A stretch of 64,000 nt of DNA from Escherichia coli. GTDB lineage: Bacteria > Pseudomonadota > Gammaproteobacteria > Enterobacterales > Enterobacteriaceae. Made by a program: the position numbers and the translations under genes. This document shows positions 29,600 to 60,013 of the stretch, piece by piece. Below the pieces are notes generated by a model. It saw only the letters and a program-made list of their open reading frames with translations. It had not been told where the DNA came from and ran no database searches. The stretch lies in assembly GCF_036507355.1 (NCBI RefSeq), contig NZ_AP027877.1; one strand, 5' to 3'. Within the stretch, counting starts at the first letter, position 1. The number at the start of each line of letters is the position of its first letter.

Positions 29600-31291
29600 A
29601 TGAAAACGCTGCTGATTATTGACGCTAATCTCGGTCAGGCACGCGCCTATATGGCGAAGACCCTGCTGGGCGCGGCGGCGCGAAAAGCAAAACTGGAAAT
29701 CATCGACAATCCGAACGACGCAGAAATGGCGATTGTTCTCGGTGATTCCATCCCGAATGACAGCGCGCTGAACGGTAAAAATGTCTGGCTGGGCGATATT
29801 TCCCGGGCAGTTGCGCACCCTGAGCTGTTCCTGAGTGAAGCCAAAGGCCATGCGAAACCTTACACTGCGCCGGTCGCTGCGACAGCACCGGTTGCCGCCA
29901 GCGGTCCGAAACGCGTAGTTGCGGTGACTGCTTGCCCGACTGGCGTAGCACACACCTTTATGGCGGCTGAAGCCATTGAAACCGAAGCGAAAAAACGTGG
30001 CTGGTGGGTGAAAGTTGAAACCCGTGGTTCTGTTGGTGCGGGTAATGCAATCACCCCCGAAGAAGTAGCCGCAGCGGATCTGGTGATTGTGGCGGCAGAT
30101 ATCGAAGTGGATCTGGCGAAATTTGCTGGTAAACCGATGTATCGTACCTCTACCGGTCTGGCGCTGAAGAAAACCGCGCAGGAACTGGATAAAGCGGTTG
30201 CTGAAGCAACGCCGTATGAACCGGCGGGCAAAGCTCAAACGGCGACCTCTGAAGGTAAGAAAGAGAGTGCAGGCGCATACCGTCACTTGCTGACGGGCGT
30301 CTCTTACATGCTGCCGATGGTCGTTGCAGGTGGTCTGTGTATCGCGCTTTCTTTTGCTTTTGGTATCGAAGCGTTTAAAGAGCCGGGTACGTTGGCAGCG
30401 GCGCTGATGCAGATTGGTGGTGGTTCAGCCTTTGCGCTGATGGTGCCGGTACTGGCAGGTTACATTGCCTTCTCCATTGCCGATCGTCCGGGTCTCACGC
30501 CGGGTCTGATTGGCGGTATGCTGGCGGTCAGCACCGGTTCTGGCTTCATTGGCGGTATTATTGCGGGCTTCCTGGCTGGTTACATTGCGAAGTTAATCAG
30601 TACGCAACTGAAACTGCCACAGAGTATGGAGGCGCTGAAACCGATCCTGATCATTCCGCTAATTTCCAGTCTGGTGGTCGGTCTGGCGATGATCTACCTG
30701 ATCGGTAAACCGGTTGCTGGCATTCTCGAAGGGTTGACTCACTGGCTGCAGACCATGGGGACTGCGAATGCGGTTCTGCTGGGGGCGATCCTCGGTGGCA
30801 TGATGTGTACTGACATGGGCGGTCCGGTAAATAAAGCAGCGTACGCATTCGGTGTGGGTCTGCTGAGTACTCAAACCTATGGCCCGATGGCGGCGATTAT
30901 GGCGGCAGGTATGGTGCCACCGCTGGCAATGGGTCTGGCAACAATGGTGGCGCGTCGCAAATTCGACAAAGCGCAGCAGGAAGGTGGCAAAGCCGCTCTG
31001 GTTCTTGGTCTGTGCTTTATTTCGGAAGGTGCAATTCCGTTTGCTGCTCGTGATCCGATGCGTGTGCTGCCGTGCTGTATCGTGGGTGGGGCGCTGACTG
31101 GCGCAATCTCAATGGCGATTGGTGCGAAACTGATGGCACCGCACGGTGGTCTGTTTGTTCTGCTGATCCCTGGCGCTATTACGCCGGTACTGGGTTACCT
31201 GGTAGCAATTATTGCCGGTACGCTGGTGGCGGGTTTGGCCTATGCCTTCCTGAAACGTCCGGAAGTGGACGCAGTAGCGAAAGCCGCGTAA
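29600..31291 (+). CDS. fruA: Fructose PTS IIB'BC component FruA (563 aa)
   Basis: Duplicated IIB domains followed by IIC membrane domain; CPTGVAHT phosphorylation-site motif. Confidence 0.93.
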   Translation: MKTLLIIDANLGQARAYMAKTLLGAAARKAKLEIIDNPNDAEMAIVLGDSIPNDSALNGKNVWLGDISRAVAHPELFLSEAKGHAKPYTAPVAATAPVAASGPKRVVAVTACPTGVAHTFMAAEAIETEAKKRGWWVKVETRGSVGAGNAITPEEVAAADLVIVAADIEVDLAKFAGKPMYRTSTGLALKKTAQELDKAVAEATPYEPAGKAQTATSEGKKESAGAYRHLLTGVSYMLPMVVAGGLCIALSFAFGIEAFKEPGTLAAALMQIGGGSAFALMVPVLAGYIAFSIADRPGLTPGLIGGMLAVSTGSGFIGGIIAGFLAGYIAKLISTQLKLPQSMEALKPILIIPLISSLVVGLAMIYLIGKPVAGILEGLTHWLQTMGTANAVLLGAILGGMMCTDMGGPVNKAAYAFGVGLLSTQTYGPMAAIMAAGMVPPLAMGLATMVARRKFDKAQQEGGKAALVLGLCFISEGAIPFAARDPMRVLPCCIVGGALTGAISMAIGAKLMAPHGGLFVLLIPGAITPVLGYLVAIIAGTLVAGLAYAFLKRPEVDAVAKAA

Positions 31292-31445
31292 TAAAAGGTG
31301 TGTTACAGGGCAGAATTTTACTGCCCTGTATCATTGGATGAGCGCAAAGAGAATGACCGGTTTGTGAATGTAATTTTATGAATTTAAATGGTTTTATCTT
31401 TCAGTAGAAACCTGAAACGTTCATCAAACACTAAGGTTATTTCCT

Positions 31446-31476
31446 CAAGGGCAGATTCTTTTCTGCCCTTTTTTAG
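31446..31476 (+). terminator. Rho-independent terminator downstream of fruA
   Basis: aagggcagattcttttctgccctttttt: GC stem followed by a T-run. Confidence 0.7.
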
Positions 31477-31714
31477 TGTTCATGTTCTGTGCATCCCGTC
31501 ACAAATTCCTCGCTTTTGTAATTCTGGCATTTAATCGCATTTTGTGAGCCTGCTCAAATCTGCCCGCTTTGCCTCTCTGGCGGCAATTTACTTTACGTAA
31601 AACATGCATACTATGAGCACATGTTTAAATATGAACACATGTTTAAACTGTCTTTGCAGTATCTATATTCTTGTGGATTGACAGGGTTGGTAATTTTTTA
31701 CCAGAGGACGTGCT

Positions 31715-32656
31715 ATGCGCGAAAAGGATTATGTCGTAATTATAGGCTCGGCGAATATTGATGTCGCCGGATATTCACATGAATCATTAAATTATGCGGA
31801 TTCAAATCCAGGTAAAATAAAATTTACGCCTGGTGGGGTAGGGCGCAATATTGCACAAAACCTGGCGTTGCTGGGTAATAAAGCCTGGCTACTGAGCGCC
31901 GTAGGCAGTGATTTTTATGGCCAATCGCTGCTAACGCAAACCAATCAATCTGGCGTTTATGTCGATAAATGCCTGATTGTGCCGGGAGAAAATACGTCGA
32001 GCTATTTATCATTACTCGATAATACCGGTGAAATGCTGGTTGCTATAAATGACATGAATATTAGCAACGCTATTACAGCTGAATATCTCGCACAGCACCG
32101 TGAATTTATTCAGAGGGCAAAGGTCATTGTCGCGGACTGTAATATCAGTGAAGAGGCACTGGCATGGATTCTGGATAATGCTGCCAACGTACCCGTATTT
32201 GTCGATCCGGTTTCAGCGTGGAAATGTGTCAAAGTGCGCGACCGTCTAAATCAGATCCACACTCTGAAGCCAAACCGCCTTGAAGCGGAAACACTGAGTG
32301 GGATTGCGCTGTCAGGGCGTGAAGATGTGGCAAAAGTTGCTGCCTGGTTCCATCAACATGGCCTGAACCGACTGGTATTGAGCATGGGCGGCGATGGCGT
32401 TTATTACAGCGATATCAGCGGTGAAAGTGGCTGGTCTGCGCCGATCAAAACCAATGTTATTAATGTTACCGGAGCGGGCGATGCCATGATGGCGGGACTT
32501 GCTTCGTGTTGGGTAGACGGAATGCCGTTTGCCGAATCTGTTCGTTTCGCACAGGGATGTTCGTCAATGGCGCTCTCCTGTGAATACACCAATAACCCCG
32601 ATTTATCGATTGCCAACGTTATATCGTTAGTGGAGAACGCAGAATGTCTGAATTAA
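31715..32656 (+). CDS. psuK: Pseudouridine kinase PsuK/YeiC, pfkB family (313 aa)
   Basis: pfkB sugar kinase with GGVGRNIA and GAGDAMMAG motifs; first gene of psuKGT. Confidence 0.9.
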   Translation: MREKDYVVIIGSANIDVAGYSHESLNYADSNPGKIKFTPGGVGRNIAQNLALLGNKAWLLSAVGSDFYGQSLLTQTNQSGVYVDKCLIVPGENTSSYLSLLDNTGEMLVAINDMNISNAITAEYLAQHREFIQRAKVIVADCNISEEALAWILDNAANVPVFVDPVSAWKCVKVRDRLNQIHTLKPNRLEAETLSGIALSGREDVAKVAAWFHQHGLNRLVLSMGGDGVYYSDISGESGWSAPIKTNVINVTGAGDAMMAGLASCWVDGMPFAESVRFAQGCSSMALSCEYTNNPDLSIANVISLVENAECLN

Positions 32657-54990: not shown

Positions 54991-55039
54991 TATGATTGTG
55001 GTCCGCATTCGGTCATAAACGCACATAACATCATGATCT

Positions 55040-55215
55040 GTGTGGTTTTGTAGGCCGGATAAGGCGTTCACGCCGCATCCGGCGACAGGAGCCAAATGCC
55101 GGATGCAACGCTGGCGCGTTTTATCCGGCCTACAATGAGCTCAACATACTGATTTGTATGGTTTTGTAGGCCGAATAAGGCGTTCAAGCCGCATCCGGCG
55201 ACAGGAACCAAATGC
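55040..55215. repeat. BIME cluster: tandem pairs of REP units
   Basis: gtaggccggataaggcgttcacgccgcatccggcgacagg and ...gccggatgc... repeated twice, about 110-bp period. Confidence 0.85.

Positions 55216-58017: not shown

Positions 58018-60013
<1,996 letters not shown>

Follow-up and report, generated by a model that had tools for sequence, protein, structure and literature searches.

Why does the fructose operon of Escherichia coli end in two related hairpins, only one of which is followed by a U-tract, and what is the function of the other one? The question was raised by a sequence-only reading of a 64,000-nucleotide stretch of E. coli DNA, which is called the window in the following. That reading had pointed to two related hairpins downstream of fruA, and both are indeed present, with coordinates that had to be corrected by 1–3 nt. 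Our analyses make it very probable that the hairpins are paralogous copies of one terminator that was duplicated around an insertion, with the downstream copy (H2) terminating transcription. For the upstream copy (H1), a 3' barrier in the mRNA is the likeliest of the roles considered, though a tentative one.

The hairpins and the end of the fruBKA transcript

In the window, fruB, fruK and fruA are followed by a 423-bp intergenic region and then by psuK (31715-32656), psuG and psuT. The elements of this region are the following:

29600-31291, plus strand: fruA (PTS fructose IIBC), last gene of fruBKA, with the stop codon at 31289-31291 (open reading frame list and RefSeq annotation of matching E. 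coli records).
31303-31331, plus strand: H1, upstream copy of the ancestral fruA terminator hairpin, base of the stem lengthened, U-tract lost.
31332-31446, plus strand: insert between the hairpin copies, AU-rich, single-copy and fast-evolving, with self-complementary ends (GATGAGCG / CGTTCATC).
31447-31474, plus strand: H2, downstream copy and working intrinsic terminator of fruBKA, with a 9-bp stem, a 6-nt loop and a T-run at 31469-31474.
31475-31714, plus strand: psuK upstream region, the ancestral right flank of the terminator, containing a tandem 18-nt repeat (TATGARCACATGTTTAAA) at 31612-31647.

H1 begins 11 nt past the fruA stop codon and lacks a T-run, as the sequence-only reading had described it. 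Its stem is formed by TTACAGGGCAG (31303-31313) and CTGCCCTGTA(T) (31321-31331), which enclose the loop AATTTTA (31314-31320). The letters that follow the stem are ATCATTGGATG / ATCATTGG in the window and AACATTTGATG in K-12, and a terminator scan makes no call at H1, which thus lacks the U-tract immediately 3' of the stem that characterizes intrinsic terminators. In H2, AAGGGCAGA (31447-31455) pairs with TCTGCCCTT (31462-31470) around the loop TTCTTT, the stem contains five G-C pairs, and six T residues are found at 31469-31474; H2 is called by the terminator scan and has the sequence features of an intrinsic terminator. The predicted RNA folds have energies of -19.7 kcal/mol for H1 (z -5.6) and -15.5 kcal/mol for H2 (z -5.2), and none of 200 shuffled sequences folded as well. 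The fruA 3' UTR as a whole also folds better than its shuffles (z -5.3). The pattern GGGCAG-N4-10-CTGCCC matches twice in the 64-kb window, namely at H1 and H2, with 0.01 matches expected from shuffles, and the hairpins are direct repeats with a spacing of 141-142 nt and the common sequence AGGGCAGA..CTGCCCT. A search of both strands of the fruA 3' region against Rfam gave nothing near a gathering score. The possibility that H1 is a terminator of the opposite strand was rejected, as that strand has no T-run and no convergent gene.

That the second hairpin is the fruA terminator, as had been proposed from the sequence, is supported by published Term-seq data of K-12 MG1655, in which a dominant 3' end is placed at 2259536 on the minus strand, with the sequence ...CCTCAAGGGCAGATTATTTTCTGCCCTTTTTT / ...GGGCAGATTATTTTCTGCCCTTTTTT (Adams et al., 2021; PMC7815308, Supplementary file 1). 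This position corresponds to position 31474 of the window and lies exactly in the U-tract of H2; the coordinate had been predicted beforehand from the window, and H2 thus forms 3' ends at its U-tract in vivo, as expected for an intrinsic terminator. The end is listed once across the three growth conditions, and it was classed as "orphan" because it is more than 50 bp away from the stop codon (PMC7815308). A Rho-termination region peaks at 2259533 on the minus strand, about window position 31477 (Rho score 3.5, p=3e-5; Adams et al., 2021; PMC7815308), and this position just after H2 suggests that some transcription may pass H2 and be stopped by Rho before psuK.

Further downstream, about 70 nt 5' of psuK, two 18-nt units are arranged in tandem (TATGAGCACATGTTTAAA / TATGAACACATGTTTAAA, window 31612-31647). 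This repeat is kept in Citrobacter, Enterobacter, Klebsiella and Kosakonia wherever psuK comes after fruA, and it looks like a putative operator for a regulator of psuKGT.

Descent from a single terminator, and the inserted DNA

The origin of the hairpins became clear from a comparison of the fruA loci of 80 species, which were gathered via the FruA C-terminus and of which 75 are not Escherichia. Exactly one GGGCRG..CYGCCC hairpin, 16-45 nt past the fruA stop codon and followed by a T-run, is present in 33 of these 75 species, and 19 of the 33 hairpins are identical to GGGCAGAGATTTCTCTGCCC, with Citrobacter, Enterobacter and Klebsiella among the carriers. The two-hairpin state was found in none of the 75. 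The ancestral hairpin has the form GGGCAGAG-ATTT-CTCTGCCC plus U-tract, and where psuK is the next gene, as in Citrobacter amalonaticus, C. sedlakii, Enterobacter soli, E. asburiae, Klebsiella michiganensis and Kosakonia, the psuK promoter region with its tandem AACACATGTT repeats lies directly 3' of the single terminator. Two copies, 115-145 bp apart, occur only in Escherichia loci, namely in E. coli, E. albertii, E. whittamii and two further species. The H1 form of K-12 and ST2747 (GGGCAGAAATTTCCTGCCC) differs by two changes from the outgroup consensus 20-mer GGGCAGAGATTTCTCTGCCC, and H1 of the window strain (GGGCAGAATTTTACTGCCC) has two further loop substitutions. The right flank of H2 is orthologous to the right flank of the single Citrobacter terminator. 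Direct repeats thus flank the insert, both copies trace back to one 20-mer, and an empty site with a single copy exists, in the case of fruA only in other genera. The sequence-only reading had offered a decayed terminator duplication as one explanation, and the duplication is borne out by the one hairpin of the outgroup genera and the two of Escherichia, whereas decay applies to the lost U-tract of H1 but not to its core stem, which was kept.

On this basis, about 115-145 bp of DNA would have been inserted at the terminator in the Escherichia lineage, and the entire palindrome would have been duplicated, with one copy on each side. The downstream copy would have kept the ancestral right flank and the U-tract and still terminates fruBKA transcription, and the upstream copy would have lost the U-tract at the insertion junction and with it the ability to terminate. 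One observation counts against this explanation: ATTTCCTCA, the left flank of the single terminator in C. sedlakii, adjoins H2 rather than H1, which is not predicted by a simple duplication model.

E. coli carries two alleles at this position. Allele A, the allele of the window and of K-12, is present in 4,232 of 5,426 complete genomes (78%), and allele B in all the others (1,194, 22%). Allele B also has two related hairpins, CATCATCGGGGCTGAGACATCTCTGCCCCGATGATG directly after the stop codon and GGGCAGAGACATCTCTGCCC followed by T5, and the insert that is flanked by GGGGCTGAGACATCTCTGCCCC and GGGCAGAGACATCTCTGCCC+T5 is a complete BIME-1 with two inverted REPs, the long linker and the terminal motifs. 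BIME-1 elements, also termed RIP or RIB, consist of paired REPs with a long IHF-binding linker and are typically located at the 3' ends of transcription units. A profile of 16 other copies detects the element of allele B with E=1e-44 and the E. albertii version with 4e-43, and the inserts of allele B and of narP (see below) belong to BIME-1 by sequence match as well as by their multi-copy nature, with about 40 places per E. coli genome. The alleles differ in a block of about 1.15 kb (31265-32410) that shows 28-85% identity, with flanks of about 100% outside; the block spans the last eight fruA codons (PEVDAVAKAA versus PETQIVEKNA) and most of psuK. The allele-B block resembles E. albertii, and psuK is frameshifted in the allele-B strain examined (L003). 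The divergence reflects either an ancient polymorphism or an import. The loop states are allele-specific and common to both hairpins, ATTTC in A and CATC in B, and within each allele the hairpins are more alike than either is to its counterpart in the other allele, which calls for gene conversion between the copies or else for two insertions that hit the same terminator independently.

The allele-A insert is more difficult to classify. It is missing from all non-Escherichia fruA loci, and the four Escherichia species-level sequences share 73% identity, with 49% variable columns. It is no multi-copy family, as blastn in distant mode finds it at one place per genome, and a profile of the insert matches only fruA intergenic regions in 1.4 Mb of loci. 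The profile HMM of the 16 BIME-1 copies has no match at E<=50 in the A-type region of the window, K-12 and three further loci (L005, L007, L008), and a position-specific junction test for BIME-1 likeness was non-significant (p 0.15-0.8); a global alignment to the BIME-1 of allele B was marginal (z 2.1-2.5, p 0.01-0.03). A decayed BIME-1 was considered, as the termini and a central TGAATTT look alike by eye, yet nhmmer in both directions, the junction test and blastn were negative. With a negative profile, a non-significant junction test and a single copy, nothing marks the allele-A insert as a mobile element. A BIME-1 of great age that has since decayed is one possible source among others, and we do not assign the insert to BIME-1.

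No promoter was detected inside the insert on the plus strand. Coding potential of a 48-aa open reading frame at 31388-31534 was rejected because of 1-nt indels in A-type alleles of other species. In one genome, the PGAP annotation contains a 48-aa hypothetical protein (WP_001300063.1) on the minus strand, across the insert and H2 (window 31384-31530, L002 1635-1781), which is probably spurious, given the indels in other Escherichia species. In Escherichia sp. MOD1-EC7003 (L006, 3100-3560), a deletion that starts midway in the insert and reaches into psuG has taken away H2 together with psuK and its promoter; H1 is kept, and the fruA 3' UTR is joined to the interior of psuG.

BIME-1 elements between copies of local hairpins

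A second example lies within the window, at the narP-ccmH locus (narP, 286-963, minus strand), where the stop codon is followed by a U-less hairpin, a BIME-1, and a hairpin with a T-run, an architecture that spans positions 70-288:

257-281, minus strand: upstream hairpin copy AGCCCGATGGatttatCATCGGGCT, no T-run (from alignment with empty-site alleles).
106-256, minus strand: BIME-1 with REP pair, long linker and terminal motifs (profile E=1.4e-48), 81% identical to the element of fruA allele B.
70-105, minus strand: downstream hairpin copy GGCCTGATGGaatcaCCATCGGGCC, followed by a T-run at 78-70.

Of the E. coli genomes, 1,504 have this BIME-1, whereas about 3,900 are without it and show a single hairpin (AGCCCGATGGcatcaCCATCGGGCC) with a T-run at the empty site. 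Other partial BIME-1 profile matches in the window are a multi-REP cluster at 55036-55211 and single REPs at 8077-8133 and 59088-59123.

The same arrangement recurs at further loci. Between yqjF and yqjG, AAAAACGAGGAGcttcCTCCTCGTTTTTT occurs once in the empty allele and on both sides of the element in the filled allele (L091 460-690), and as the latter is found in only 78 of 5,426 genomes, recent activity is suggested. At yqeB-arcC, 1,649 genomes are filled, and the 27-bp hairpin TGGCCGGATGGTATTACCCACCCGGCC is single in the empty allele and flanks the element in the filled one (L124 727-1031). At mgtA-ridA, BIME-1 lies between two copies of the local hairpin (L101 8481-9075). Empty sites with a single copy are thus seen within E. 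coli for narP, yqjF and yqeB, and in the filled alleles of all three the hairpin on the far side of the BIME-1 is the one with the T-run. The junctions at narP and in allele B had suggested a fold-back mechanism, by which the arms of the new copy would be synthesized with the same strand as template, but yqeB-arcC led us to reject it, since the new 5' arm there reproduces the original arm instead of complementing the 3' arm. The new copy even retains the A of an A.C mismatch, and the event at yqeB was therefore a true direct duplication and not a fold-back synthesis.

A metagenome scan for the left end of BIME-1 yielded 15 flank configurations, 11 of which are robust sites. Direct copies of a local hairpin are found on both sides at five of the 11 (p=0.002 each), a strong hairpin abuts the left terminus only at four, and there is none at two. 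In a single metagenome contig, which may be an assembly artefact (L211 2112-2715), the hairpin AGGCCGCTCAgAAAGCGGCCT and BIME-1 occur twice in tandem, followed by a third hairpin copy; such a tandem unit is expected from unequal exchange between flanking repeats. The BIME-1 ends look like imperfect terminal inverted repeats (TGAGAyTGATGACAAACGC ... GCGCACTTTGTCAACAATCTk), and the sequence implicates no enzyme for staggered cuts. The duplicated length tracks the palindrome, with about 20-22, 23-24, 25-26 and 27 bp, and this suggests structure-guided cuts at the base of the hairpin.

Judged from these sequence comparisons, the fruA arrangement is a target-duplication footprint of the kind that flanks BIME-1 at several other E. 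coli loci. The sequence-only reading had correctly noted a spacer, of about 120 bp; what it had missed is that this spacer (about 115 bp) is an insertion, and that the duplication is a footprint that recurs with BIME-1 elsewhere. As to how such footprints arise, we tentatively propose that BIME-1 may insert at extruded terminator hairpins via cuts at both stem feet, by which the whole palindrome of 20-27 bp would be duplicated. This process would be recurrent and recent in E. coli, and fruA would represent an old case, with an insert too decayed to be recognized. Should this hold, insertion would convert a single terminator into a module of U-less hairpin, BIME and terminator, and it would leave a concrete footprint by which REP/BIME insertion can be tested, a process whose mechanism in vivo the literature still treats as not established.

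The role of H1 and comparison with known systems

Which function, then, could a terminator copy without U-tract have? Not one of the 5,426 E. coli genomes has lost the core stem of H1, which exists in two allelic forms, and the sister species have it as well; the stem base is longer than that of the ancestor in both alleles, with 12 bp in K-12 (GTTACAGGGCAG / CTGTCCTGTAAC) and 12 bp plus 3 in allele B. In the H1 core, 2 of 16 positions are variable, versus 56 of 115 in the insert (Fisher p=0.005), and in H2 4 of 28 (p=0.0006). The stem varies among A-type sequences by wobble-compatible single changes only, and no double compensatory changes were found among them, so that the structural argument rests on conservation, which could also reflect gene conversion with H2. 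REP and 3' stem-loops are described to serve as terminators and as stabilizers (bioRxiv 10.64898/2026.03.23.713779), and H1, with its -19.7 kcal/mol (z -5.6), is a stable stem-loop in a 3' UTR. In the mRNA, it would act as a barrier against 3'-to-5' exonucleases that shields the coding region of fruA after cleavage of the long AU-rich 3' UTR. By its likeness to REPs and other 3' stem-loops, we consider such a barrier a plausible but tentative assignment, and it is the most likely reason that we can infer for a stem that was not only kept but lengthened at its base. A decay intermediate at H1 is not contained in the curated Term-seq list, which comprises dominant ends from media without fructose.

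We had to consider also that H1 is a functionless relic of the duplication, persisting because little time has passed or because of gene conversion with H2. This is rather unlikely, though only somewhat less likely than the barrier, and deserves to be taken seriously, as no 3' end maps at H1, its stem has no double compensatory substitutions, the conserved part of H1 is exactly the part common to H2, and the loss of H2 by deletion in the MOD1-EC7003 lineage shows that the region tolerates change. Neutral decay, however, does not predict that the stem base became longer than in the ancestral terminator in both alleles, nor does it fit well with an H1 core that is far less variable than the adjoining insert with its 49% variable columns (p=0.005).

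It is improbable that H1 is a pause site or a weak or conditional terminator, which would give fruBKA two tandem termination points. Such a role would agree with an H1 fold that is more stable than that of H2 (-19.7 versus -15.5 kcal/mol), with the moderately U-rich stretch AACAUUUGAU that follows H1 in K-12, and with the Rho-termination region in the fruA-psuK intergenic region (2259533, Rho score 3.5), but there is no U-tract after H1, the terminator scan passes it over, and Term-seq argues against it. An end linked to H1 would be expected at about 2259680, but the tables, which give dominant ends from media without fructose, have no entry from 2259600 to 2259799 for any of the three conditions (PMC7815308); in these cultures, H1 thus shows no sign of terminating transcription. 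An RNA-processing site, another suggestion of the sequence-only reading, finds no support in these tables either, as no processing 3' end is listed at H1. That reading was to be given up if all fruA transcripts ended at the second hairpin and the first one was not conserved across strains; the listed 3' ends do all fall at H2, yet H1 has been conserved among the strains.

The segment from H1 to H2 could further be a regulatory sRNA derived from the 3' UTR, with H1 as 5' processing boundary and H2 as terminator and Hfq site. The read score of the "orphan" 3' end of H2 is considerable in a fructose-free medium, and the good folding of the 3' UTR (z -5.3) would be in line with this idea. We nevertheless regard it as very improbable, as there is no Rfam match and no promoter-like site inside, the segment evolves fast and with indels (73% identity) and has no conserved single-stranded seed, and BIME-1 takes its place in 22% of E. 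coli. Finally, that GGGCAG/CTGCCC represents paired binding sites of a sequence-specific protein is hardly conceivable: the inner 7 bp are invariant in sequence and not just in their pairing, but many genera have this very sequence as their normal, single fruA terminator, and the duplicated hairpins elsewhere have unrelated sequences (CCCGATGG, ACGAGGAG, GGCCGGATGG), which indicates that structure and duplication recur, and not a motif. Nothing else pointed to the protein-binding site that the sequence-only reading had also considered.

For fruBKA itself, the gain is modest: the terminator hairpin is fixed, and a 180-nt 3' UTR, absent from the relatives, is seen to set Escherichia apart and to exist there as two deeply divergent alleles. 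With the footprint, there is also an explanation for a class of "orphan" hairpins that lack a U-tract and lie just past stop codons. Compared with known intrinsic terminators, H2 is a typical case, with its GC-rich stem, short loop, U-tract and mapped 3' end. H1 descends from the same terminator but has neither U-tract nor mapped 3' end and is therefore a terminator-derived hairpin. In being stable, U-less, placed just past the coding region and followed by further 3' UTR, H1 resembles the REPs and 3' stem-loops that stabilize mRNAs, such as REP325 in yjdMN or the REP between malE and malF; it differs in that it is not a REP, and its stabilizing role is inferred.

With regard to BIME-1, the likeness is that a complete element lies between the fruA hairpins in 22% of E. 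coli and in E. albertii, and between two local hairpin copies at narP, yqjF, yqeB and mgtA; the difference is that the insert of the window allele is single-copy and without profile match. As with the target-site duplications of transposons and MITEs, direct repeats surround the element, empty alleles have one copy, and the A.C mismatch at yqeB was copied, but the duplicated length is not fixed and follows the size of the palindrome (about 20-27 bp). Unusually long target duplications of about 27 bp are made by the IS1202 group. By published description, the Y1 transposases associated with REPs, like their IS200/IS605 relatives, leave no duplications of this kind (PMC2817692).

We found no account of terminator-hairpin duplication at BIMEs in Ton-Hoang (2012), Delihas (2011), Nunvar (2010), Bertels and Rainey (2011) or the 2026 REP preprint, and Gilson (1991) or Bachellier (1997) may hold an earlier account. 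As such, a terminator and a U-less paralogue of it are nothing unusual. What is apparently new, as we could not find it described, is a BIME-1 between duplicated host terminator palindromes, with empty alleles that have a single hairpin. Five loci with BIME-1 between copies of a host terminator, three of them with such an empty allele, show that terminator hairpins are the landing site, and the footprint shows that the effect of insertion on the DNA is a direct duplication sized to the structure. The pairs of filled and empty alleles now permit a genome-wide census and a biochemical test of REP/BIME movement.
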